Assembly: GCF_048403405.1 (NCBI RefSeq)
Contig: NZ_CP183129.1
DNA from: Escherichia coli
GTDB lineage: Bacteria > Pseudomonadota > Gammaproteobacteria > Enterobacterales > Enterobacteriaceae
Length of the DNA stretch: 64,000 bases
Reading direction: 5' to 3' (one strand)
A program made the position numbers and the translations under genes. This document shows positions 1,683-45,258 of the stretch, piece after piece. Below the pieces are notes generated by a model. That model ran no database searches, had not been told where the DNA came from, and saw only the letters and a list, made by a program, of their open reading frames with translations. Position 1 is the first letter of the stretch. Each line of letters begins with the position of its first letter.

Positions 1683-2394
1683 ATAAATATCCTCCGGCAT
1701 AGCCGGAGGTTTTTCAAATGCGCCTGTAAGGCTCTGTTACCAGCCGCGCCCTAACAGGCGCATACGATCTGACATTTGCATTCAACTTCGTTACTTACGG
1801 CCCGTAAACGGGCTGCCCGGATAGGGAATCGATAACTGCTCCCCCATTTTATCCTCTTCAAGCTGGTGCTTTATGTAGTCCTGTATCTTCGCCGTGTTCT
1901 TACCCACCGTATCGACATAGTACCCTCGGCACCAGAACTCCCTGTTTCTGTATTTGAATTTCAAATCCCCAAACTGCTCGTAAAGCATCAGACTGCTTTT
2001 CCCTTTCAGATATCCCATAAAGCCGGATACGCTCATTTTGGGTGGGATTTCCACAAGCATATGGATATGATCTGCGCAGCACTCTGCTTCCAGAATCCGT
2101 ACGCTTTTCCACTCACACAGCTTTCTCAAAATACTGCCTATCGCCCTACGCTTCTCTCCGTAAAACGCCAGTCTTCGGTATTTCGGCGCAAAAACTATGT
2201 GATATTTACAGTTCCAGCGGGTGTGCGCTAAGCTCTTTTCGTCCCCCATTGGGACCCCCTTTTGATTTCTTGTTTGACACTTGCAGTTGCCAGACCGCAA
2301 GGTGTTTTAACAAATCAAAAGGGGTTTTAATAACTGGCTCAAAGCTGAAAGCTTTCCGGAACCCCCAGCCTAGCTGGGGGTTTTCTGTGCACAA
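1680..2394 (-). mobile_element. IS200-like insertion sequence (IS200/IS605 family, tnpA only), copy A; ends +/-3 bp
   Basis: About 715 bp nearly identical to the reverse complement of 40814..41528; contains a single Y1 transposase gene; conserved terminal hairpin cctccggcatagccggagg. Confidence 0.85.
1791..2249 (-). CDS. tnpA: IS200/IS605 family Y1 (HUH) transposase TnpA
   Basis: 152 aa from MGDEKSLAHTRWNCKYHIVFAPKYRR; HUH motif HIHMLV; within ORF 1791..2300. Confidence 0.9.
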   Translation of the reverse strand: MGDEKSLAHTRWNCKYHIVFAPKYRRLAFYGEKRRAIGSILRKLCEWKSVRILEAECCADHIHMLVEIPPKMSVSGFMGYLKGKSSLMLYEQFGDLKFKYRNREFWCRGYYVDTVGKNTAKIQDYIKHQLEEDKMGEQLSIPYPGSPFTGRK

Positions 2395-3987: not shown

Positions 3988-6900
3988 TTACGCCTTCTCA
4001 ATGTTGACTAAGAACGCTTTATATTCCGGCGTTTGCGAGTTTGCATCACCGACATTCGGCGTCAGAGTGTTAGCGATATAACCTTTACGCGCGACACCCT
4101 CAAAGCCCCAGTGGATTGGAATACCCACCGTTTCAACCTGCTGACCGTTTACATTCAGCGGCTTCAGACGGCGCGTTACCACAGCCACCGCGCGGATAAA
4201 GCCACGCTTGCTGGATACGGTGACACGGTCGCCATTGGCGATGCCTTTCGCCGCCGCCAGCGTTTCGCTGATTTCCACAAACTGTTCCGGCTGAGCAATG
4301 GCGTTGAGCAATGCATGCTTAGTCCAGGTGTGGAAGTGCTCGGTCAGACGATAGGTCGTACCCACATACGGGAACTGCTCTTTTTTACCCATCCGCAGCG
4401 CGTCTTGTTCATACAGACGAACGACCGGGTTAGACACCACGTTCGGATGCAGCGGGTTAGTGCCCAGCGGCGTTTCAATTGGCTCGTAGTGTTCCGGGAA
4501 CGGACCTTCCGCCATTTTGTTGATGGCAAACAGGCGTCCCATCCCTTCCGGCTGCATGATAAACGGTCCGGTTAGTGTACCTGGCGCGGCATTGCCGAAG
4601 TCCGGAATATCGTTACCCGTCCACTTGCTGCCGTTCCACTGGATCAGCATCCGTTTCGGATCCCACGGTTTACCGTTGATATCCGCCGAAGCACGGTTGT
4701 AGAGTACGCGACGGTTGAGCGGCCACGCCCAGGCCCATCCCAGCGTATTCCCCAGACCGGACGGGTCGGAGTTATCGCGGTTAGCCATCTGGTTGCCCTG
4801 CTCTGTCCAGCTACCGGTGTAGATCCAGCAAGAAGATGCGGTTGTACCGTCATCACGCAGATGCGCAAAGCTACTCAGCAACTGACCTTTCTTCGCAATC
4901 AGCACGCCATTGGCATCATAGAGATCTTCCAGCGCGTAGCCGTTGTTCTCTTTAGCTACTTCGTCAGATTGCGGTTCGTGCGGCTGCTTGTAGTTCCAGC
5001 TCATCTTCATCAGCGGTTCTACGCCTTTACCACCTTCGGCCTGGTACAGCTCGCGCAGATGATGGTAGATACCCGCCAGAATTTCGCCGTCGTTACGCGC
5101 TTCGCCCGGCGCGTCCTGACCTTTCCAGTGCCACTGCAACCAGCGACCGGAGTTAGCAATAGAACCATCTTCCTCAGCAAAGCAGGTCGAAGGCAGACGG
5201 AATACTTCAGTCTGAATAGACGCAGGATCGACATCGTTCGACTCGCCGTGGTTCTGCCAGAAGGTAGAAGTTTCAGTCACCAGCGGATCGATAACCACCA
5301 TATACTTCAGCTTGCTCAGGCAGCTTACCACTTTGTTTTTGTCCGGGAAGGACGCAACCGGGTTAAAGCCCTGGCAGAAATAACCGGTGACTTTGCCTTC
5401 ATCCATCATGTTGAAATACTTGATGACGTCGTAGGTCTGGTCCCACTTGGGCAGCCAGTCGTAGCCCCAGTTGTTCTCTTTCTGCGCAGCATCGCCGTAG
5501 AAAGATTTCATCAGGCTAACGAAGAACTTCGGATAGTTGCTCCAGTAGTTCACCTGATCAGCCAGCGTCGCTTTCGGCGTGTTCGCTTCCAGATACGACT
5601 GCAAATCAACCTGTTTTTCTGACGGCAGCGTCAGATAACCCGGCAGGCTGGTAGAGAGCAGGCCTAAGTCGGTCAGCCCCTGAATGTTGGAGTGACCACG
5701 CAATGCGTTCACGCCGCCACCGGCCATACCCATGTTACCGAGCAGTAACTGGATCATCGCCATAGTACGGATGTTCTGCGCACCCACGGTGTGCTGCGTC
5801 CAGCCCAGCGCGTAAAGGAAGGTGGTTGTGCGATCCGGTGCGCTGGTGGAGGCCAGCACTTCACACACTTTCAGGAAGTCGGCTTTTGGCGTACCACAGA
5901 TGTTTTCTACTACGTCCGGCGTGTAGCGGGAAACGTGCTCTTTCAGCAAGTTCCACACACAGCGCGGATGAGTCAGTGTTTCATCGCGTTTCGCATAGCC
6001 GTTTTCATCGAACTGATAGTTCCAGGACGATTTATCGTATTGACGTTTTTCAGCGTCGTAGCCGCTGAACAGACCGTCTTCGAAAGCAAAATCATCACGC
6101 ACCAGCAGACTGGCGTTGGTGTAATGCTTAACGTATTCGGCGTTGATTTTGTTGTTTTCGATCAGGTAGCGCAAAACGCCAGACAGGAACGTAATGTCCG
6201 TACCGGAACGAATAGGTGCGTAAATATCCGCTACAGAAGCGGTACGCGTAAAACGGGGATCGACAACGATCAAGGTTGCATCGTTGTTGTTTTTCGCTTC
6301 CATCGCCCAGCGGAAACCGACGGGATGCGCTTCAGCAGCGTTACCGCCCATCACCATTACGACGTTAGCGTTTTTGATATCCACCCAGTGGTTGGTCATC
6401 GCACCGCGACCAAATGTTGGAGCAAGACTTGCTACCGTTGGTCCGTGTCAGACGCGCGCCTGGTTGTCTACCGCCAGCATCCCGAGGGAGCGGGCAAATT
6501 TCTGGGTCAGCATCCCGGTTTCGTTGCTGGCACCGGAGGCACACAGCATACCGGTAGAAAGCCAACGGTTTACCGTTACGCCCTGCTCGTTCTTTTCAAT
6601 AAAGTTAGCGTCACGGTCAGCTTTCATCAGCTTCGCAATACGGGAGAATGCTTCATCCCAGCTAATGCGCTGCCATTTGTCAGAACCTGGCGCACGATAT
6701 TCCGGGTAGCGCAGACGGTTTTCGCTGTTGACGTAATCCAGCAAACCGGCCCCTTTCGGGCACAGCGCACCACGGCTTACCGGATGATCCGGGTCACCTT
6801 CAATGTGATAAATCGCTTCTCTGGCGTTTTTCGCGCCATCACCCAGGCTATACATCAATAGCCCGCAACCTACGGAACAGTATGTGCAGGTGTTACGGAT

Positions 6901-7035
6901 CTCTTTAGCGCGTAATAATTTGTAGTTTCGCGCCTGAGCCAGTGCTTGCTTTGGGGCAAAGCCCAATGCCGCTACTGTTGTTCCAGCCATACCGCCCGCG
7001 CAGATTTTAAAAAATTGTCTGCGACTGACGTCCAT
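3988..7035 (-). CDS. fdnG: Formate dehydrogenase-N alpha subunit, selenocysteine-containing molybdoenzyme; in-frame UGA at 6448..6450 decoded as Sec
   Basis: ORFs 6448..7035 (195 aa, Tat signal RRQFFK) and 3988..6399 are in the same frame separated only by one TGA; local sequence ...NQARV-U-HGPTVA matches the Sec active-site context; total 1015 aa. Confidence 0.93.
6400..6447 (-). other. SECIS-like stem-loop region immediately 3' of the fdnG UGA
   Basis: mRNA sense CACGGACCAACGGUAGCAAGUCUUGCUCCAAC... can fold (GCAAGUCUUGC) directly after the UGA, as expected for bacterial SelB-dependent recoding. Confidence 0.6.
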
Positions 7036-7099
7036 TGCTTTCCTCTTTTTTCAGGGGTATTACTGCGCGAGGAAACTAACAGTAAAATTCTGAATCTTT

Positions 7100-7113
7100 T
7101 TGCGCGAAATCAA
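7100..7113 (-). promoter_or_regulatory. Candidate FNR half-site pair in the fdnG promoter
   Basis: Minus-strand reading TTGAT-TTCG-CGCAA versus consensus TTGAT-N4-ATCAA; about 70 bp upstream of fdnG ATG; fdn is known to be FNR-activated. Confidence 0.4.
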
Positions 7114-7160
7114 AAAGAACACGTGTTTGCCACAAAATAATCCGCCTGCGCAAATTGACC

Positions 7161-7176
7161 TACCTCAATAGCGGTA
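7161..7176 (-). promoter_or_regulatory. Candidate NarL 7-2-7 heptamer pair
   Basis: TACCTCA-AT-AGCGGTA, two inverted near-consensus TACYYMT heptamers with 2-bp spacing, about 60 bp upstream of the FNR-like site; overlaps an alternative FNR-like TTGAC-N4-CTCAA at 7155..7168. Confidence 0.4.
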
Positions 7177-7266
7177 GAAAAACGCACCACTGCCTGACAG
7201 GCCAGTTAAAAAAATGCTATAAAATTCAGCTTAATTTTTAACGGCAAGAGAGACAAAACAGCGAGC

Positions 7267-8148
7267 ATGACACGACAAAAAGCAACGCTCATAGGGCTAA
7301 TAGCGATCGTCCTGTGGAGCACGATGGTAGGATTGATTCGCGGTGTCAGTGAGGGGCTCGGCCCGGTCGGCGGTGCAGCTGCTATCTATTCATTAAGCGG
7401 GCTGCTGTTAATCTTCACGGTTGGATTTCCGCGTATTCGGCAGATCCCGAAAGGCTATTTACTCGCCGGGTGTCTGTTATTCGTCAGCTATGAAATCTGT
7501 CTGGCGCTTTCCTTAGGATATGCGGCGACCCGTCATCAGGCGATTGAAGTGGGTATGGTGAACTATCTGTGGCCCAGCCTGACAATTCTCTTTGCCATTC
7601 TGTTTAATGGTCAGAAAACCAACTGGCTGATTGTACCAGGATTATTATTAGCCCTGGTTGGCGTCTGCTGGGTGTTAGGTGGTGACAATGGATTACATTA
7701 TGATGAAATCATCAATAATATCACCACCAGCCCATTGAGTTATTTCCTGGCGTTTATTGGTGCGTTTATCTGGGCAGCCTACTGCACAGTAACGAATAAA
7801 TACGCACGCGGATTTAACGGAATTACCGTTTTTGTCCTGCTAACGGGAGCAAGTCTGTGGGTTTACTATTTTCTCACGCCACAACCAGAAATGGTATTTA
7901 GCACGCCAGTCATGATTAAACTCATCTCTGCGGCATTTACCTTAGGATTTGCTTATGCTGCATGGAACGTCGGTATATTACATGGCAACGTCACCATTAT
8001 GGCGGTAGGTTCGTATTTTACGCCCGTCCTTTCCTCAGCGCTTGCAGCCGTGCTGCTCAGCGCCCCGCTGTCGTTCTCGTTCTGGCAAGGCGCGCTAATG
8101 GTCTGCGGCGGTTCCCTGCTCTGCTGGCTGGCGACACGTCGTGGCTAA
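7267..8148 (+). CDS. yddG: Aromatic amino acid exporter (DMT/EamA family)
   Basis: 293 aa, about 10 TM segments, recognised as YddG; divergent from fdnG. Confidence 0.93.
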   Translation: MTRQKATLIGLIAIVLWSTMVGLIRGVSEGLGPVGGAAAIYSLSGLLLIFTVGFPRIRQIPKGYLLAGCLLFVSYEICLALSLGYAATRHQAIEVGMVNYLWPSLTILFAILFNGQKTNWLIVPGLLLALVGVCWVLGGDNGLHYDEIINNITTSPLSYFLAFIGAFIWAAYCTVTNKYARGFNGITVFVLLTGASLWVYYFLTPQPEMVFSTPVMIKLISAAFTLGFAYAAWNVGILHGNVTIMAVGSYFTPVLSSALAAVLLSAPLSFSFWQGALMVCGGSLLCWLATRRG

Positions 8149-8406
8149 AATAATTGTCGGGTCTACGGCCCGGCAGTTAATCAGATAAATTCCGACAATA
8201 TAAAAAAATAAATTTCAAATACCAGTAGTTCACCTTATATTTCATTTCGACTTCGATCACATATCGATAAATAATATTATTTCATCTATTTTTCTCATTG
8301 TTTTTAATCACCATTCTATTTTAAAAACAGTATGTCATTTATAAATGACGCCGTTTAAAATTCGTTTAGAAAATACGTTTAACGATAATTAAAAGGATTC
8401 TGTTAA

Positions 8407-9507
8407 ATGAAATTAAAAATAGTTGCGGTGGTTGTAACTGGTTTGTTAGCTGCGAACGTAGCACACGCTGCCGAAGTCTATAACAAGGATGGTAATAAAC
8501 TCGACCTTTATGGCAAGGTTACCGCTCTACGTTATTTTACTGATGATAAGCGTGACGATGGTGATAAAACTTATGCCCGTCTCGGCTTTAAAGGAGAAAC
8601 GCAAATCAATGATCAAATGATTGGTTTTGGTCACTGGGAATATGATTTTAAAGGCTATAACGATGAAGCCAACGGCTCGCGCGGTAACAAGACCCGTCTG
8701 GCCTATGCAGGTTTAAAAATTAGTGAATTTGGCTCTCTGGACTATGGTCGTAACTACGGTGTCGGCTATGACATTGGTTCATGGACCGATATGTTGCCAG
8801 AATTTGGTGGCGATACCTGGAGTCAGAAAGATGTCTTCATGACATACCGTACTACCGGTGTGGCAACCTATCGCAACTACGATTTCTTCGGCTTAATTGA
8901 AGGTCTGAACTTTGCCGCGCAATATCAAGGCAAAAATGAACGCACTGACAATGGCCATCTTTATGGTGCTGACTACACGCGTGCCAATGGTGACGGTTTC
9001 GGTATCTCCTCAACTTATGTTTATGATGGCTTTGGTATCGGTGCGGTGTATACCAAATCCGATCGGACAAATGCGCAGGAAAGAGCCGCTGCTAATCCTC
9101 TCAATGCCTCCGGTAAGAATGCAGAACTGTGGGCTACAGGTATAAAATATGATGCCAACAACATCTACTTTGCAGCTAATTACGCTGAAACATTAAACAT
9201 GACCACCTATGGCGATGGTTATATCTCTAACAAAGCACAAAGTTTTGAAGTAGTGGCACAATATCAATTCGACTTCGGCTTGCGCCCATCACTCGCTTAC
9301 CTGAAATCGAAAGGCAGAGATCTGGGCCGCTACGGCGACCAGGACATGATTGAGTATATCGACGTTGGTGCGACGTATTTCTTCAACAAAAATATGTCGA
9401 CCTATGTTGATTATAAAATCAACCTGATTGATGAAAGCGACTTTACCCGTGCCGTAGATATTCGCACCGATAACATCGTCGCAACGGGCATTACCTATCA
9501 GTTCTAA
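8407..9507 (+). CDS. ompD: General porin of the OmpC/OmpF/PhoE family, OmpD/NmpC-like; intact counterpart of the K-12 yddL pseudogene position
   Basis: Signal peptide [21 protein letters not shown] then [16 protein letters not shown]; C-terminal ...GITYQF; 366 aa; sits next to yddG as ompD does in Salmonella (symbol by synteny and family, from memory). Confidence 0.8.
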
Positions 9508-9520
9508 CATCCTCTCCTGA

Positions 9521-9547
9521 CCAGCCCTTCTCTGGGCTGGTTTTTGA
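9521..9547 (+). terminator. Rho-independent terminator after the porin gene
   Basis: ccagccc-ttctct-gggctgg followed by TTTTT, 14 nt after stop. Confidence 0.8.
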
Positions 9548-9676
9548 TTTAAGTGCTGCTGTATGACTCCTTAAGTAAAAATGAGCAATTTTTGATATTT
9601 CTGGTCACTCACCTCAATTAATATTCTTCCATACCCTCCGGGGACATCTTACTATAATATTTATTGATGTGTGATT

Positions 9677-10936
9677 ATGACCAATATTAATACAGCTTGT
9701 GTAAAAAATAATGCCAGTTATCAATTAAATAACGCATTACCTAACAAAGAAACCATCTCCAGCAATTTTTGTGAACGACTGGCAAAATGGGGTAATAAGT
9801 CGCTTAATAATGGTGAAGAAAGAGCAATTGCCGTAGAGCGAATTAAAGAAGCTTACAATTCGAACATGGCATCTCTTGATTTGTCATATCTTGATTTGAG
9901 TGAGTTACCGACTATCCCCTCGACAGTTAACACGTTAAATCTGGAAAACAATTGTCTCACTTGTCTTGACTTTACTGACAATGCCAGCCTCGTCAATATC
10001 AACCTCAGCTTTAATAAAATTAAAACGATAACCTTTCCAAATGAATCAAAACTGGAAAATATTTATATTGATCACAACAATCTGGAAAGTTTGGATTTAA
10101 AAAATCAGCATTCATTGGTTAACCTGGAAGCGCAAAATAACAATCTGACAAAAATTAACATTTCTGATAGTTATAAACTGAAATTTCTTAATCTTGATTA
10201 TAACAAGCTAGCATCGCTGGATCTCTCCCGGCAAGAATCTCTGATTGAGTTAAGTGCCCATCACAATATGATCACTGACCTTATATTACACAATCATCCC
10301 AGGATGAAAAAAATCACTTTAAACGACAACCATATTGCACATTTAAACGCGAAAACCACTACAAAGCTGGAATATTTAAACTTAAGCAATAACAATTTAT
10401 TGCCAACAGATGACATTGATCAATTAATATCATCAAAACATCTTTGGCATGTATTAGTTAACGGCATCAACAATGATCCACTTGCCCAAATGCAGTACTG
10501 GACTGCAGTAAGAAATATAATTGATGACACTAATGAAGTGACCATTGAATTATCTTATAACCTGGCAATCACAAATATCGATACCAGCGATGAACATCTT
10601 GTAGAAGTAAGCGAGAATTCCGAAGGAAATCATATAAAAGACAATGACTCAATGTCTATTCGTTATAGATCAAAATATTATTCCAGAGAGTACGATTTAA
10701 TAGAAGAAGAAACAATATTTTCTGACGCAGAACTAAAAGCCATTCTGCCTATGCATCGCATGTACGGGGTTGGTGACTATAAGTCAAATTCCTCTTCTCT
10801 ACCCTCACACTCGGGGCTAAAGGACCCAACGGGCACACCCGTCTGTTATTATATTCATAATGAGGATAAACCTTCCTTAGGTTATGGTTCAACACCCAAT
10901 AATTGGTTAAGCCAATCCTTTTCTACAGAGTTATAA
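9677..10936 (+). CDS. yddK: Leucine-rich repeat protein with an IpaH/SspH/YopM-like LRR N-terminal region; no signal peptide; no NEL ligase domain
   Basis: ORF 9671..10936 (GTG; ATG at 9677 chosen); N-terminal ...ERIKEAYNSNMASLDLSYLDLSELPTIPSTVNTLNLENNCLT followed by about 21-22 aa LxxLxLxxNxL repeats; AT-rich; symbol by position relative to K-12 yddK. Confidence 0.75.
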   Translation: MTNINTACVKNNASYQLNNALPNKETISSNFCERLAKWGNKSLNNGEERAIAVERIKEAYNSNMASLDLSYLDLSELPTIPSTVNTLNLENNCLTCLDFTDNASLVNINLSFNKIKTITFPNESKLENIYIDHNNLESLDLKNQHSLVNLEAQNNNLTKINISDSYKLKFLNLDYNKLASLDLSRQESLIELSAHHNMITDLILHNHPRMKKITLNDNHIAHLNAKTTTKLEYLNLSNNNLLPTDDIDQLISSKHLWHVLVNGINNDPLAQMQYWTAVRNIIDDTNEVTIELSYNLAITNIDTSDEHLVEVSENSEGNHIKDNDSMSIRYRSKYYSREYDLIEEETIFSDAELKAILPMHRMYGVGDYKSNSSSLPSHSGLKDPTGTPVCYYIHNEDKPSLGYGSTPNNWLSQSFSTEL

Positions 10937-10997
10937 AACACATCCTGATTTATCAAGGGTGATAAATCAGAAAAGAAAGTATTACTACGGAGCAGTT

Positions 10998-27089: not shown

Positions 27090-27641
27090 CTATCTTCTTA
27101 GCGATGTCTTTCTGGTATCACATTGGATCGGTGCAATTATTTTTCCTTTAATACCCATTATGTTAAGAAATTCAGAAACAGCTGTAATCTCATTGTTTTT
27201 TTCATTCGTCTTGATCTTACAAGGAATCTGACTGTGCATTATTGAGAACACACTAATAACGTGAATCGCTCCCTTGCGACGACTCTTGTCATAAGAGTAC
27301 CGGAGCGTTTTTCCATCAATTGCAATGACGTCTTTATCATCTGAAGAATGGCAGTCAAGCATCCAGTTAATAAAGCACTCATGAAATTTTTCAGGACTGA
27401 TACAGGATACAACTCTGGCAATGGTATCGTGAACAGGAATACCATTATCAAAATCACCATATTGCTTCAAAAAATCGAGATGTGTTTCCCCAAAATCCTC
27501 TATATCTTCCCAGCCTTCTGCACCCGAAATAACGGCACAAATAGTCAACAGTAGAATATCCGATAATTTATGTTCCACTTTCCAGGCTTGTCTGTAATCG
27601 GGGATAATAGAAATATGTCCCATCAATTTTTTAAGTTCCAT
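27090..27641 (-). pseudogene. ISAs1-family (H-repeat, YhhI/YdcC-like) transposase, 3'-truncated fragment
   Basis: N-terminal about 166 aa match the H-rpt protein ([12 protein letters not shown]...[11 protein letters not shown]...IDGKTLR) then the frame diverges and stops; full-length homologs are about 378 aa. Confidence 0.8.
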
Positions 27642-27789
27642 TTTGTTCTCCTTAATTATGTAAGGAGTATTTGATCATGTATACGCAATAAAAAACAGCT
27701 TCAGGTAATGAGGAATATCTCAATTGTTAAACATAAAATGCGAATTGTCTAGTACAAAAAAGCAGCGTTACGTGATCTTTCCGTGGATC

Positions 27790-27912
27790 GTCAAATTGTT
27801 CGAGAGAAAATACCAACATGATGGATTTTACTGTAAAAGTAATGTCGTAGTTTAAAAACTCATCATCCGGTAAAGCCTTGTGGGGCGTGGGCTTTCATAC
27901 TTTTACCCTGAT
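27790..27912 (-). repeat. ISAs1/H-rpt element upstream end (copy 1 of a conserved roughly 120-bp block)
   Basis: tcaaattgttcgagagaaaataccaacatgatgg...cttgtggggcgtgggctttcat...ccctgat is about 85 percent identical to 34529..34650. Confidence 0.65.
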
Positions 27913-28226
27913 GTCTGCTATACGCCGGACACCCTTTACGTAGCATTCGGAATTCACCCGTAAATTTATCACGGCGGTATCACGAAACCTCCGGTTCTGA
28001 TGCCGCTTAGGACTAACGACACGTCAACACAGGTTCGGGTTTATTCATTTCACTGTATCTCATATAATCTGAGCACTCCCCCTGCGCTCGCTACTATGAC
28101 TCTTTACCACAGCAACCGGGGTTGTTTGGGATCGGCTTTCAACAGCAGATCCCGGTGGCTATTGCAAGTAAGTCTACTTTCCACATCAGTGTTACTGACA
28201 CAGAAAATAATGAGTTATGATCCTTG

Positions 28227-28712
28227 TCATATTTTTAATATAGCCCCATGAGCTATAGGATCAAAACCTTCTAACCATGAGGTGTTTTTATCGAATAATG
28301 CACCTGTTATATTTATATCGCCATATCTATCACATAATAAATTAGCGCCACATAAGTCAGCACCAGAAAAATTTGAATCTTTAACGTCTGCATTGCAAAA
28401 GGTTGAATTAGTTAATATAGCACCCTCAAAGTTTGCACCTATTGACCTTGAATTACTAAAGTCACTTCCAGTGAAATCTGAGTTATTAAGAATAGCGTTC
28501 ATCAGAGCCGCATTGCGAAAGACAGCATTTCTAGTTGATGTATGTTGAATCATTACATTTCTTAAATGGGAATTTTCAAATTTCGCCCCATCAAGACAAT
28601 AACCATTGAGGATGGCACGATGTAGATCCATCCCGCTAAAATCATATCCAGCAAGAGTGGTACTATCTATATCAAGAAATTTATTGGTTATTAAAAACGC
28701 GATTCTTATCAT
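28227..28712 (-). CDS. Pentapeptide-repeat protein; putative cognate immunity protein of the adjacent Rhs toxin
   Basis: 161 aa; tandem A(D/N)(L/F)xx pentapeptides ([11 protein letters not shown]..., [33 protein letters not shown]); start ATG overlaps Rhs stop (ATGA) so translationally coupled; AT-rich. Confidence 0.8.
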
Positions 28713-31700
28713 CTATTCCCCCAATCATCTAACTCCGGAAAAATTTGGCTAAACGGATATAGTGGTGCCGATAATGGACGCGTACCTGGCCGCTCAGGAG
28801 GAAGTTTATCACATAACAGACCCGCAACCATCCTGTGATTACCATTAACAATCACATTCCCATCCATATCAACCGGTGGTGCTCCACTACCATCTTCCAG
28901 CATTTGTACGTAGTGAGCTACTACGGGTACTGAGACTTTTTGTTGTACTGTCAACAAGGGACTGTTGGCCACAACCATCCTGATGTTTTCAGGTGTCGTA
29001 GGTAAACATTTAGTCTTCTCTTGACTAAAGGTATCATCCCACAATTTTGTTAAACCCATCACTGCCTGTTGTCTGTATTTATCCATGGGGTCAGCAATCA
29101 ACCAAGATGGACCTGACTGCTCTATGGAATCTTCTCCGGAGAGACCCAACGGATCTATCTTAGTAGTTGGATTCAATGGATACTGATACAGGTTCCATGC
29201 ACCTCTTAGCCCAATGGGATCCTGGGTGATATACCGCCCCTGCAACGGGTCATAGTACCGGTTGCGGTTATAGTACAGCCCCGACTCCTCATCATACTGC
29301 TGCCCCGGCAGACGGTACGGCTGTTGCAGTTGCTGCGCGCTGGTTTCGCCCAGCAGGTTTCCCCACTCGTCATACTCCCCCTGCCACGCCGTTTCCCCTT
29401 CCGGGCTGATGAGCGCCTGCGGCAGCCCCCGGTGGTCGCAGTGGTAAAGATGAAGTGTCCTCTCCGGGATGTATTCCGCCTCCATCTGGTTTTTCATCTG
29501 TTCCGCCGTCAGCCCGCACTGCTGAAGCCATGCCTCACTCTCCGCACTCACCGCACCCGCGCGCAGTTCCCGCTCCAGCCTCCCCAGCATCACCGACAGC
29601 TCCGCCGGTAGCGTCACCCCCGTGTCCTCCTGCAACACCTCCGCCAGACTCCGGTGCCGCGCCTTCGCCTGTTCACCATTCTCTGTTTCGATTCTGATGA
29701 GCGGCGTGAAGCTCCCCGGCTGGTATACCGTCTGGATACGCGTGGTGCCGGTCTGTACCGTCGTCAGCCTGTCACCGTCCCACCCGTACCAGGTCTCCTC
29801 CGGTTTACGCGACAGCGACATCCACCCCGTCAGGTCACGCTCCCGCCGCCACACCCGTTTCCCCGTCCGGCGGCCCAGCGGGTCATAGAGGTAGCGGCTC
29901 TCCACCTGTGGCTCGCCGTGCTGTATCCGCGTGTAGAACACCAGGCGGTGCTGGCTGTCGTAATGGTAGTGGTGCGTCCGCTCGTCGTGCATCCGTATCA
30001 CCCCTTCCGGGATACGGTCCGTCTTCTCCGCCAGCCTGCCGTATTCATCGTAGCGGTAGACATAGTGCGCATCTTCCGTGATGCGGTTATCCGGCCACGC
30101 CGTGAAGGTGCTGTCCGGGTGCAGTTCCGGGTCCGGCAGCCGGTTTCCTGCCGGGTCCGTCGCATACGGGATATCGATATCCAGGTTCGCCGCCGTGGTG
30201 TGAACGCCCGTCAGTCTTCCCGTGTCGCTGTAACGGTACTTCCGGCTCTCCTGCGGGCCGCTGATGCGCACCAGTTGCCCGTTATCGTTCCACGTATACT
30301 CACGGTCAAGCTGCGGAAGGTTCAGGTGCCTGCTCCGGAGCTGCCCTGTGAGGGTGTACGCCGTGGCCTGTTCGTACCCCGCTGTACTGCCCGCCCCGCC
30401 GAAGCTGCGGGCCGTCTCACGGTGCAGCCGGTCCCGCGTGTACTCGACCAGCGGCGTTCCGCCCAGCTTCATCCCCGCAAGATAACCGCTGCCATACGTC
30501 AGCCACTCCACCGGCGGCAGACCGTCCGGCTCCTGACGGGTCGCCAGCCCCTGTTCGCTGTAGACGTGCCTCGTCTCATGCTCCCACAGCATCTCCCCCG
30601 TCTCCTGGTTCTCCACCGTCTGCCGTTCGCCCGTCAGGCGGCCTTTATCGTCATAGCCGTAGTGGACCGCCACACGGTGGCCTTCGCTCAGGTGGCTGAT
30701 TTCTGTCAGCCAGCCGTGGTCGTCATACTGCCACTGCTCCGCCGGGTCGCCGTTCACCGTCCGGTGCGTGATGCGCCCGGCGTCATCGTAGTACCACTGC
30801 GTGACCTGCCCCTCATCCTCGCTGCGGATGAGCTGCCCTGTGGCGCTGTACCGGTAACGCTGTGTCCTGCCGTCAAAGCCGCGCTGCTCCGTCAGCCTGT
30901 CCACCGGGTCATACCGGAACGTGGACTGGCTGCCGTTCTCGTTGGTCAGCACGGTGATGCGCCCGGCGGCGTCATACTCCATGCTGCGCGTCAGTCCGCC
31001 CTGCGTGGTGCTGACGGCCTTTCCCCACGCATCATACTGTGTCTCACTCCGGCTGCCGTTCGGGGCAATGATAGCGGTGAGGTCGCCTGCGGCGCTGTAC
31101 TCATAACGGGTTTCACGTCCCTGCGCATCCTTCTGACTGACCAGTTGACCACGCGGGTTATAACTGCTGTAAGTGCTGATGCCTTCCTCCCGGTGAACCG
31201 CCGTCCTCTGACCGTACCGGTCGTATTCATACCGCGTCGTGTACCCTGAACAGTCCGTAAATGCCTGAAGCTGACCGTACCGGTTTCGCGTTATTCTCCG
31301 CCTCACCCCGGTTCCGTCTTCCACCGCACAGGGCAGGCCACTGCGGGAAGAATCATAAAACCAGCGCGTAATGTTACCGTTGCGCGAGACCTCTTCCGCC
31401 AGCCTGCCCTGACGGTCATATTTCCGGCTGCGGCGCAGCCCGTCCGGGTACGTCACTGACGTCAGTTGCAACTGGTTGTTGTAACCATACCGTACCGTCC
31501 TGCCGTCCGGCAGTATCACTGAAGTCAGCTTTCCCGACGCCATATGCAGCCGGTACTCCGTCCGCCGTCCCGCCGCATCCGTCTGCGCCTTCAGCCTCCC
31601 CGCCTCATCATACTCGCTGCGGGTGATGCTCCCGTCCCCATACTCCTTCTTCACCACCCGCTTCAGGCCGCCCTCGCCCTCCGTGTACAGCACCTCCCGC

Positions 31701-32920
31701 CGGTTCAGGCTGTCCGTGATGGTCACGCGGTCCTGCCCGTACTCAAAGCGGTAGTCCAGCCCCTCCGGGTTGACCTGCTCCGTCACCCGACCGGTATCAT
31801 CATACCGGTAGCGGCTCTCCGGCCTCCCCGCATAATGGTGCGCCACCATCCGCCCGGCGTGCTCCGCATCATAAGTAAACCCGCGCACCTGCGTCCCGCT
31901 GCGGTCATACACCGCCCGCAGTTCTCCGCTGGCCGTGTACGTGTAGCGCGCCAGCGGCGCAGTCGGCAGTTCATCCGGGTATGCCGGGTCGTGTGTCAGC
32001 CATACCGCCTCCAGCCGGATACCGTTATCGGCACCGTACTCTGTACCGGTGGGCAGCGTGTCGGGGAAAAACTGAGAAGAGGAAACAGAACGGGGACTGG
32101 CCGGAGAAGATAAAGAAGACTCGCGCTGTTTACGGAAGGCTTTCGCCCGCTGCGCCTGTGTGGTCAGCGCCAGATGAAAACGGCGGCCCGCGCCGTCCGT
32201 CACCCCCGTCACCGCGCCCGCCGCTTCCCCCTCTGCCGCCCGGTGGAAGGCCAGCGTCCGCCCGAAGCCGTCCACCACGCCCGTCAGCACCCGGTATGCG
32301 GGCGGCTCCGGCGGCAGCACCTCGTCCGCCTCCGGCACCCGCTCCGGCCAGCCGAGTATCCACCACGGCCCCTGAAGGCTGTTTGTCGCCAGGTACACAT
32401 GCGGGCTTAAGCGGAGACTCTCCGGCAGCACCTGCCAGAGCGCGCTTAGCGGCTGCGAACTGTGCTGCTCCGCCACCCCGCCCCTTGCCAGCCAGAACGA
32501 CTCGCTGCGGCTGTAGCTTATCTCGCCGGGAAACAGCGGCTCAAAGTGAATGCTCCTGCCGCCACTGTCGTTGAGTATCAGTTCCCGCTCATGAACCTGT
32601 AAGCGGATATCGAAGGGCGCTTTCCAGCCGGGACCAAACACCCCCACCGGCGCGGGTGTCCTGGTCCGGTAGCTGCTGTAGGCGCGGGAAAGAATAAACG
32701 GCAACGGGCCGGGCAGCGCAAGATCCGTCTCGCCCGGCAGCACCTTCGCACCCAGTAGCGGGTTCACCGGGTTACCCTTCTGCTCCTCCACCGGGCTGTT
32801 GGGACACACCGAGCAGGCCACTCCCGTCGGCGCACCTATCAGCACCCCCGCTGAACCCTGCACAATATCCAGTCCCTTGCGGGTCATATCGCCCTGTCGC
32901 GCCGCCGGTTTTCCGCTCAT
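28709..32920 (-). CDS. Rhs-family polymorphic toxin (PAAR-containing N-terminus, YD-repeat shell, DPLGL-delimited variable C-terminal toxin tip)
   Basis: 1403 aa; N-terminal [13 protein letters not shown]...[12 protein letters not shown]; many YD repeats ([18 protein letters not shown]...); conserved PxxxxDPLGL just before the last 143 aa; GC-rich core, AT-rich tip. Confidence 0.93.
28712..29140 (-). other. Rhs C-terminal variable toxin domain (last 143 aa), family not recognised
   Basis: Sequence after DPLGL: [10 protein letters not shown]...VVAHYVQM...[17 protein letters not shown]...ELDDWGNR; base composition drops relative to the Rhs core. Confidence 0.6.
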
Positions 32921-32939
32921 GGTTTATTCCTTAAATTAT

Positions 32940-33131
32940 TTATGGTTTTATTCTGAGTGCAATCCATACTGATTCATAACCAGTGAATAAGATTTCCCCG
33001 AATAATCTATATAAATTAGCGAAGTCCTCTTCACTAATTAACCGTAAAATCCCGTACCAATGAAATATAAAAATAACCACCCACACAAATTTATTGCAAA
33101 TATTATTTATTATTGTATATACATCATTCAC
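32940..33131 (-). CDS. Hypothetical small hydrophobic protein immediately upstream of Rhs (may be spurious)
   Basis: 63-aa ORF with GTG start in an AT-rich region; ends 17 nt before the Rhs start; no recognisable domain. Confidence 0.2.
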   Translation of the reverse strand: MNDVYTIINNICNKFVWVVIFIFHWYGILRLISEEDFANLYRLFGEILFTGYESVWIALRIKP

Positions 33132-33341
33132 TGAACGTTCTCAAACTGCATACCTTAGAACCATCAATTAAAGCCACAACAAAAAAAATCGATTACTTTA
33201 TGTCGCATGACAAATATGAATTACATATTAATCAACCTTAAAAACAATCATCTCTTATAATTAACAGCATACCATGAGAAACACAAAATCAATTTACCAT
33301 GCATACCAGGAGCATAATTAACCTCTCACCGCAGGGCGAAA

Positions 33342-34478
33342 TCATGAAGGCCCGCAGCCAGCAAGGATTAGAGAAAGGTATTCATTCTTACGTCCTGCCC
33401 GCTTTTGCTTGCGTTTAATACCCGCTTTAAAGCTATTCTCTGCGGTCAGTAAATTCATCGCGATATGTCGACAAACTGCCAGATTTTCTCCCGCTTCTCC
33501 ACGAACAATCTGGCATTCATCTTCCCGCATCCCCATATCAAGTCGCCAGTGCAGTTGATTTTCTACCGACCAGTGTGCTCGTGTTGCTTCCAGGAGTTCT
33601 TTCGCCGTAAGCGTCACCGAACTTATGTAGTAGCGAAGAATACACTTCTCTGATTTCACCGCTGTTTCTCCTTCCTGTCTGCTCGCCAGCACTATTCCTA
33701 TCGTGCTCAGCTCTGACCATTCATAAGCTAAATCACCCAGAGCGGTTAAATCATGGCTCACAATGCAGCATCGTGTATCTTCCCGTCCATGCCCTTTTTC
33801 CTGCGTGCTGTAACTGTCATACCTCTCACCCAGCCACATTGTCGGCGAGTACCCGTTATCAAACGCCTCCGCTAATTTTCCCTGATTTCCTTTCAGCGCC
33901 AGCAGGTAACCGGCTTTCTTTTTCAGAATTTCACGGGCGATTATATGCTGGCAACCCATTGCATCCAGCGTGACCAGACACCCTTTTAATTCCAGCAACT
34001 GGAGCCGTTCCGGGATCGCCGTTATCTCATTCGATTTTGCCCCTGTTTTCACCTGCCCCAAAACCAGACGATTTTCTGCGCTAAAAGCACTGACCCTATG
34101 GATCACGGCATTACGTTTCGATTTATCGTAAGTACCCCGTAATGACTTACCATCAATCGCCACAACAGAGCCTTCAGACAACGTGTGACAGTCCTTCATC
34201 TACTGGATAAAAAGGGGCTGTAATTGTTTTGCTGAAATCATTCCCATCACTCGGGCAATCGTGTGATGGGAGGGGGTGCCATTTTCAAAATCACCATACA
34301 GGCGTAACCATTCCAGATGCTCCTCACCAAAATCAGCAATTTCTTCCCATCCTTCAGCGCCACCGATAATGGCGGTGATCGTCAGAAAAAGGATATCCGC
34401 CAGGCTGTAACTGGTTTTCCAGGACTGGCGATAATCGTGAATAATTGAAATTTGATCCAAAAGGCTTAGTCCGTTCAT
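33342..34478 (-). pseudogene. ISAs1-family (H-repeat) transposase gene inactivated by a single in-frame amber codon
   Basis: ORFs 34200..34478 (92 aa) and 33342..34199 (285 aa) are in the same frame separated only by TAG at 34200..34202; together 378 codons, the length of an intact H-rpt protein; the stop sits where homologs have Trp (…FINW-MRDCH…). Confidence 0.85.
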
Positions 34479-40813: not shown

Positions 40814-41528
40814 TTGTGCACAGAAAACCCCCAGCTAGGCTGGGGGTTCCGGAAAGCTTTCAGCTTTAAGCCAGTTATTAAAACCCCTTTTGATTTGTTA
40901 AAACACCTTGCGGTCTGGCAACTGCAAGTGTCAAACAAGAAATCAAAAGGGGGTCCCAATGGGGAACGAAAAGAGCTTAGCGCACACCCGATGGAACTGT
41001 AAATATCACATAGTTTTTGCGCCAAAATACCGAAGACAGGTGTTCTACAGAGAGAAGCGTAGAGCAATAGGCAGTATTTTGAGAAAGCTGTGTGAGTGGA
41101 AAAGTGTACGGATTCTGGAAGCTGAATGCTGTGCAGATCATATCCATATGCTTGTGGAGATCCCGCCCAAAATGAGCGTATCCGGCTTTATGGGATATCT
41201 GAAAGGGAAAAGCAGTCTGATGCTTTACGAGCAGTTTGGTGATTTGAAATTCAAATACAGGAACAGGGAGTTCTGGTGCAGAGGGTACTACGTCGATACG
41301 GTGGGTAAGAACACGGCGAAGATACAGGATTACATAAAGCACCAGCTTGAAGAGGATAAAATGGGAGAGCAGTTATCGATTCCCTATCCGGGCAGCCCGT
41401 TTACGGGCCGTAAGTAACGAAGTTGGATGCAAATGTCAGATCGTGTGCGCCTGTTAGGGCGCGGCTGGTAAGAGAGCCTTATAGGCGCATTTGAAAAACC
41501 TCCGGCTATGCCGGAGGATATTTATTTA
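40814..41528 (+). mobile_element. IS200-like insertion sequence, copy B (inverted relative to copy A)
   Basis: Near-identical to the reverse complement of 1680..2394 with a few substitutions; boundaries +/-3 bp. Confidence 0.85.
40959..41417 (+). CDS. tnpA: IS200/IS605 family Y1 transposase TnpA
   Basis: 152 aa from MGNEKSLAHTRWNCKYHIVFAPKYRR; differs from copy A at a few residues (e.g. D3N, LAFYG to QVFYR). Confidence 0.9.
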   Translation: MGNEKSLAHTRWNCKYHIVFAPKYRRQVFYREKRRAIGSILRKLCEWKSVRILEAECCADHIHMLVEIPPKMSVSGFMGYLKGKSSLMLYEQFGDLKFKYRNREFWCRGYYVDTVGKNTAKIQDYIKHQLEEDKMGEQLSIPYPGSPFTGRK

Positions 41529-45064: not shown

Positions 45065-45258
45065 GTACGGGCGTCCAGCCAGATGAATAAAACGCGCGCA
45101 AATATGCGTCATTTTTTGACGTGCATCAAGTTTTATCACCAGTTTGAGAAAAAATCATCAAACAGCAACTTGCCCTTATCCATCTTCAGAATGAGTATTA
45201 TTGCGGATTTTCTTAACCCGTACTATACACATAGGGGCAATGATAAAAGGTGGCAAAA

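Follow-up and report, generated by a model that had tools for sequence, protein, structure and literature searches.

The fdnGHI operon of Escherichia coli K-12 is classed as activated by FNR with nitrate and by NarL, and an FNR ChIP peak is located in the yddG/fdnG intergenic region of this strain (Myers et al., PMC3688515). For the E. coli fdnG promoter, an FNR site at -42.5 and NarL heptamers at -77, -100, -109, and -124 have been described (PMC3349551), and fdnG is one of four genes with a reported 7-2-7' arrangement of heptamers (PMC2718512). FNR and NarL also co-activate the narG promoter, with heptamers situated upstream of a promoter-proximal FNR site as in fdnG, however, narG lacks a 7-2-7 and instead has heptamer regions around -89 and -195 together with an IHF site, whereas fdnG carries a 7-2-7 (PMC4549865). 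Table S6 of Myers et al. shows no enrichment of IHF, Fis, or H-NS for the FNR site of yddG/fdnG (PMC3688515). The same 7-2-7 element is bound by a NarL dimer at napF, yeaR, and ogt (PMC4549865; PMC7419079). In these promoters it is centered at approximately -44.5 (napF), at -42.5 (yeaR), and at -44.5 and -77.5 (ogt), close to the core promoter, and NarL can therefore contact polymerase directly, whereas in fdnG it is centered at -104.5, behind the FNR dimer. The segment 7100-7176 of the window analyzed here, by which we mean the whole stretch of 64,000 nucleotides, is very probably the core of the control region that has been described for fdnGHI in E. coli K-12, with activation by FNR and NarL in the steps set out below.

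The window is E. coli DNA, and the locus is the same as that of the K-12 fdnGHI control region, with yddG as the divergent neighbor in both. The original prediction placed the segment between divergent fdnG and yddG genes, and this assignment is right according to both the open reading frame list and RefSeq annotation:

3988-7035, minus strand: fdnG coding sequence (formate dehydrogenase-N alpha subunit), with its ATG at 7035, in agreement with the RefSeq annotation of strain MS 69-1 and of K-12.
7267-8148, plus strand: yddG coding sequence (aromatic amino acid exporter), divergent from fdnG.

The fdnG gene appears as two open reading frames, 6448-7035 and 3988-6399, which share one frame and are split by the selenocysteine TGA at 6448-6450. 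The intergenic stretch between fdnG and yddG (7036-7266, 231 bp) has 100% identity to many E. coli genomes and at least 95% identity in 5413 of 5426 complete genomes. Compared with K-12 MG1655, 228 of the 231 intergenic bases are identical, and the three substitutions (at 7148, 7123, and 7122) fall between the listed sites with none inside the FNR site or the 7-2-7. The strain closest to the window is MS 69-1, to which the 24.7-kb stretch to the right of the intergenic region is identical. Beyond yddG the window also differs from K-12 in gene content. Between yddG and narU, at 8407-12251, lie an intact gene for a porin of 366 aa (ompC in RefSeq), a gene fragment, and a gene encoding a leucine-rich-repeat protein, whereas the K-12 region used for comparison has a yddL fragment alone, a remnant, in this place. 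Two IS200/IS605-family tnpA copies are present in the window (1791-2249 and 40960-41418), one of them located immediately after the fdnGHI operon, between fdnI and yddM. Further along, at 27091-34478, degraded ISAs1 transposase genes lie on both sides of a gene for an RHS element core protein (28709-32920) and a pentapeptide-repeat gene.

The original prediction reported an FNR-like TTGAT-N4-CGCAA and a NarL 7-2-7-like TACCTCA-AT-AGCGGTA at 7100-7176. Both are present as claimed, and the coordinates are exact, their limits coinciding with the outer ends of the two motifs:

7100-7113, reading TTGAT-TTCG-CGCAA on the fdnG (minus) strand: FNR site, centered at 7106.5 (-42.5), promoter-proximal and of class II type; supported by identity to K-12 and by its listing under b1474.
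7161-7176, reading TACCGCT-AT-TGAGGTA on the fdnG (minus) strand: NarL/NarP 7-2-7 made up of the -109 and -100 heptamers, centered at 7168.5 (-104.5); supported by identity to K-12, by its listing as a pair in PMC2718512, and by weight matrix.

On the plus strand 7100-7113 is TTGCGCGAAATCAA and 7161-7176 is TACCTCAATAGCGGTA; the fdnG-strand readings run 7113..7100 and 7176..7161, respectively. The two motifs had been quoted from different strands, one from each, which is immaterial because both are inverted repeats. NarP can also bind the 7-2-7, but activates poorly.

As consensus matches the two motifs are not exceptional. The FNR motif agrees with 8 of the 10 consensus bases of TTGAT-N4-ATCAA, which is a weak match, while TACCGCT fits the TACYYMT heptamer at 6 of 7 positions, as does TGAGGTA (reverse complement TACCTCA), the two heptamers being inverted and 2 bp apart. 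It could therefore be argued that both are chance resemblances to a short degenerate consensus and have no regulatory role. The consensus counts are at or near what this reading would predict, with TTGATN4ATCAA at up to two mismatches giving 63 matches in the 64-kb window vs. 37.6 expected, and TACYYMTNNAKRRGTA at up to two mismatches giving 4 vs. 3.3 expected. Consensus matching alone is thus no better than chance in 64 kb and is uninformative for either motif, and for this reason weight matrices were used, for which the PMC2718512 supplements provided 47 FNR sites and 68 NarL heptamers, fdnG entries excluded. A weight-matrix scan had been proposed alongside the original prediction, and it places the 7-2-7 second and the FNR site fifteenth in 64 kb. 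In detail, the 7-2-7 scores 12.25 bits (rank 2 of ~64,000 positions; null 0.69 per 64 kb) and the FNR motif 10.7 of a possible 18.6 bits (rank 15 of ~64,000 positions; null 6.3 per 64 kb), the latter rank being a further point for the chance reading. From these null rates, simple arithmetic gives ~6e-5 as the number of times that both motifs would be expected by chance within one 231-bp intergenic region. The top-scoring 7-2-7 of the window, at 12940-12955, falls within the narU gene, and we discounted it as probably due to chance.

A further argument against chance is that the FNR 14-mer and the NarL 16-mer are both base-for-base identical, by alignment, to K-12 MG1655 sites listed as FNR and NarL targets. 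These lists are the MotifAdjuster supplements, which were compiled from CoryneRegNet/RegulonDB and in which the NarL set is strand-annotated by experts (PMC2718512). Under b1474 (fdnG) they give two FNR sites, TTGCGCGAAATCAA and TTGAGGTAGGTCAA, and four NarL heptamers, AGTGGTG, TACCGCT, TGAGGTA, and CGGATTA, with TACCGCT and TGAGGTA flagged as the 7-2-7' pair 3a/3b (PMC2718512). A full-text search found neither the literal 14-mer nor the literal 16-mer in the main texts of papers; they occur in supplementary tables only. Since the listed K-12 sites coincide with both motifs, they do not align elsewhere in the intergenic region, and the predicted order and spacing of FNR and NarL elements upstream of fdnG also fit the listed sites and the published positions. 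One start point, window position 7064, satisfies all five of these positions, as follows (each relative to that putative start):

7106.5: center of the FNR site, -42.5.
7141: center of the NarL heptamer at -77, which occupies 7138-7144 (plus strand TAATCCG, fdnG sense CGGATTA); listed under b1474 and reported in PMC3349551; 4.2 bits.
7164: center of the NarL heptamer at -100.
7173: center of the NarL heptamer at -109.
7188: center of the NarL heptamer at -124, which occupies 7185-7191 (plus strand CACCACT, fdnG sense AGTGGTG); listed under b1474; 1.7 bits, a weak match.
7036-7064, minus strand: putative fdnG leader, as given by the consistency of the five published positions with the listed site sequences.

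The fdnG transcription start would accordingly be placed at 7064, which is an A and corresponds to position 1547372 of K-12 NC_000913.3. As an inventory of operators the original prediction held for its two motifs, but it omitted the second listed FNR site (7155-7168) and the heptamers at -77 (7138-7144) and -124 (7185-7191), the last of which lies outside the range 7100-7176. The FNR and NarL interpretation is therefore supported, and is incomplete rather than wrong. The feature itself is already known, being the K-12 fdnG control region, which the window carries unchanged; this is a textbook region for combined oxygen and nitrate control, and the result has little significance beyond a confirmed annotation. 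What novelty remains consists of comparative details only.

The omitted FNR-like site raises the question of which FNR site matters in vivo:

7155-7168, TTGAGGTAGGTCAA in fdnG sense: FNR-like site centered at -97.5; listed under b1474; 11.6 bits.

This site outscores the one at -42.5 (11.6 vs. 10.7 bits), ranks seventh in the window, and overlaps the -100 NarL heptamer end of the 7-2-7 by 8 bp. It may be that the -97.5 site acts instead of, or besides, the -42.5 site, in which case FNR and NarL would compete, because the site overlaps the -100 heptamer. In addition to its higher score and its listing as an FNR site of b1474, the -97.5 site (coordinate 1545292) is the sole site of the yddG/fdnG region to pass the threshold of Table S6 of Myers et al., from which the -42.5 site is absent, and it is covered by a ChIP peak centered at 1545300/1545309 in cells grown without nitrate (PMC3688515). 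On the coordinate scale of that study the -42.5 site is centered at 1545353.5, given a 1976-bp offset between K-12 genome versions that we verified from the coordinate of the -97.5 site and the MG1655 alignment. The peak center is thus ~45-55 bp from the -42.5 site and at most ~10 bp from the -97.5 site, however, peak centers that differ by tens of bases can barely be resolved. In the comparison of 55 species described below, the -42.5 site occurs in every one and that at -97.5 only in the Escherichia lineage, and a protein at -97.5 would be unable to substitute for a -35 element. Li and Stewart are also said to have found in 1992 that the -42.5 site is essential for anaerobic induction of fdnG. 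We regard this alternative, whether instead of or besides the -42.5 site, as very unlikely. The ChIP data are compatible with FNR occupancy of this site in the absence of nitrate, and the overlap suggests that binding of FNR there and of NarL at -100 may be mutually exclusive in Escherichia. The conservation of the -42.5 site can be considered together with that of the 7-2-7.

Loci for this comparison came from one scan of species-representative genomes with a degenerate pattern for the FdnG N-terminus, which gave 55 fdnG loci from at least 14 genera of Enterobacteriaceae and a stack of 53 distinct upstream sequences. The pattern TTGATTT-NN-YKCAA is found upstream of fdnG in all 55 species, with the TTGATTT and CAA parts invariant and the unusual right half CGCAA kept in all species but one. 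A 7-2-7 of at least 8 bits is located exactly 62 bp upstream of the FNR center (center to center) in 47 of the 55 species and at 61 bp in three more, while 0.14% of positions at other offsets reach 8 bits. The sites themselves are diverse, with 37 distinct 16-mers in which the TA dinucleotides at the two ends vary least. The 7-2-7 is in this way conserved as a NarL-type site, beyond inherited sequence, its position being fixed as the 16-mer varies. Between the FNR site and the fdnG ATG there are 67 to 216 bp, depending on which of the 55 species is considered, because insertions fall in the leader. This is the pattern that would be expected of selection on the binding site and its phasing, and not of simple shared descent. 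Neither flanking heptamer shares this breadth; that at -77 is NarL-like in the Escherichia lineage only, and that at -124 is without conservation outside Escherichia.

For E. coli itself, 5406 of 5415 records agree in all 30 bp around the FNR site and 5348 of 5415 in the 30 bp around the 7-2-7, whereas the whole intergenic region reaches 99% identity in only 4123, and the variation lies mostly outside the FNR site and the 7-2-7. The idea that the motifs are chance resemblances is effectively refuted by these conservation data, since position and spacing are kept across at least 14 genera while the flanks are free to vary and both motifs are nearly invariant within the species; its probability is, in our view, close to nil. 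Support for the motifs comes from identity to K-12, the leave-one-out matrices, and conservation. The comparison is of modest specialist use, in that it documents an exact 62-bp FNR-NarL spacing in most Enterobacteriaceae despite a varying NarL sequence, the restriction of the -97.5 FNR site and of the -77 and -124 heptamers to the Escherichia lineage, and a conserved block between the two activators.

Three loci in the comparison deserve separate mention. In a Shimwellia locus (L009) and in that of an Enterobacteriaceae MAG (L047) the best 7-2-7 lies 39-40 bp, and not 62 bp, from the FNR center; it is ~two helical turns closer, and the co-activation geometry therefore differs. A contig labeled as a Citrobacter sp. 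MAG (DXKH01000009.1) has an fdnG-yddG intergenic region identical to that of the window and a YddG that is 100% identical, and is probably mis-binned E. coli.

The promoter to which these sites belong is weak by consensus:

7073-7081, minus strand: extended -10-like element TG-T-TAGTTT, with strong conservation among the 53 distinct upstream sequences.

A consensus scan of 6950-7350 found no complete sigma-70 promoter, and the fdnG promoter has no -35 match, both of which are as expected for an activator-dependent promoter. From the FNR center at 7106.5 down to the first base of the conserved extended -10 hexamer is 28.5 bp, a spacing of the class II kind. With the motifs, the K-12 identity, the geometry, and the conservation computed here, and with FNR and NarL binding and activation taken from the literature and established knowledge, activation would proceed as follows. 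Under anaerobiosis an FNR dimer would bind TTGAT-TTCG-CGCAA at -42.5, replacing the missing -35 element and recruiting RNA polymerase to the weak extended -10 promoter (class II activation). In the presence of nitrate, a dimer of phosphorylated NarL would occupy the 7-2-7 at -104.5, 62 bp or ~six helical turns upstream of FNR. The flanking heptamers at -77 and -124 would assist, and together these factors would raise transcription. The way in which NarL at -104.5 would reach the polymerase is inferred, as is the start point at 7064. The suggestion that the two elements fit the known anaerobic nitrate induction of fdnG is supported through the K-12-identical sites, with binding and activation themselves coming from the literature.

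How NarL might act over this distance is a point on which the comparison offers a candidate, within the gap between the two activators:

7130-7141, minus strand: conserved block ATTATTTTGTGG, spanning -77 to -66, with the cross-genus consensus ACTATTWAGNRG.

The block overlaps the -77 heptamer in part, and 10 of its 12 columns (0.9-1.9 bits) exceed the interior columns of the 7-2-7 in information content. In genera other than Escherichia its weight-matrix score is not that of a NarL heptamer. A comparison by eye with the consensus sequences of IHF, Fis, ModE, ArcA, and CRP gave no convincing match. We put forward, tentatively and as a rather unlikely prospect, that the 62-bp NarL-FNR gap is not a passive spacer and that the block may serve as a docking site not described before, to which the alpha C-terminal domain of RNA polymerase, for instance, or another protein would attach. 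If true, such a site would relay the NarL signal from -104.5 to the FNR-polymerase complex. It is also a possibility that the same rigid module sets NarL at ~-61.5 of a conserved putative yddG promoter.

This last point bears on the possibility that the 7-2-7 belongs to the divergent yddG promoter, either exclusively or shared with fdnG:

7194-7223, plus strand: putative yddG promoter with a -35-like CTGACA at 7194-7199, an 18-bp spacer, and an extended -10 TG-C-TATAAA at 7215-7223, as read from the sequence.

The sigma-70 scan missed this element because its hexamer ends in A. Across genera, the extended -10 TGCTATAAA (yddG strand, 7215-7223) is kept 41 nt (+/- 1-2) away from the 7-2-7, a spacing that would center NarL near -61.5 of the predicted yddG start, which is a class I activator position, and yddG is the divergent neighbor at 52 of the 55 species loci. 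However, the 7-2-7 keeps an exact distance from the FNR site but one that varies by 1-2 bp from the yddG element, the start of yddG is a prediction only, and a search of the full-text literature found no report of NarL or nitrate control of yddG. A role for the 7-2-7 at yddG seems unlikely, and joint use by both genes would not contradict the role at fdnG.

Co-activation of fdnG by FNR and NarL remains the preferred reading of the segment. The window contains other FNR-like matches. The second-best FNR score belongs to TTGACGTGCATCAA at 45116-45129, between ortT (ydcX) and yncL, and its K-12 counterpart (TTGATGCACGTCAA, 1515348) is at an FNR ChIP-seq peak according to Myers et al. (PMC3688515). 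At 13517-13536, inside narU and upstream of narZ, there are two overlapping FNR-like matches; the first of them corresponds in K-12 to a predicted site (1541120) that is not at a ChIP peak and overlaps H-NS/Fis enrichment (Myers et al., Table S6, PMC3688515). Finally, the fourth-best match of the window, TTGTTTTTAATCAC at 8298-8311 (12.05 bits), is ~100 bp upstream of the porin gene at 8407-9507.
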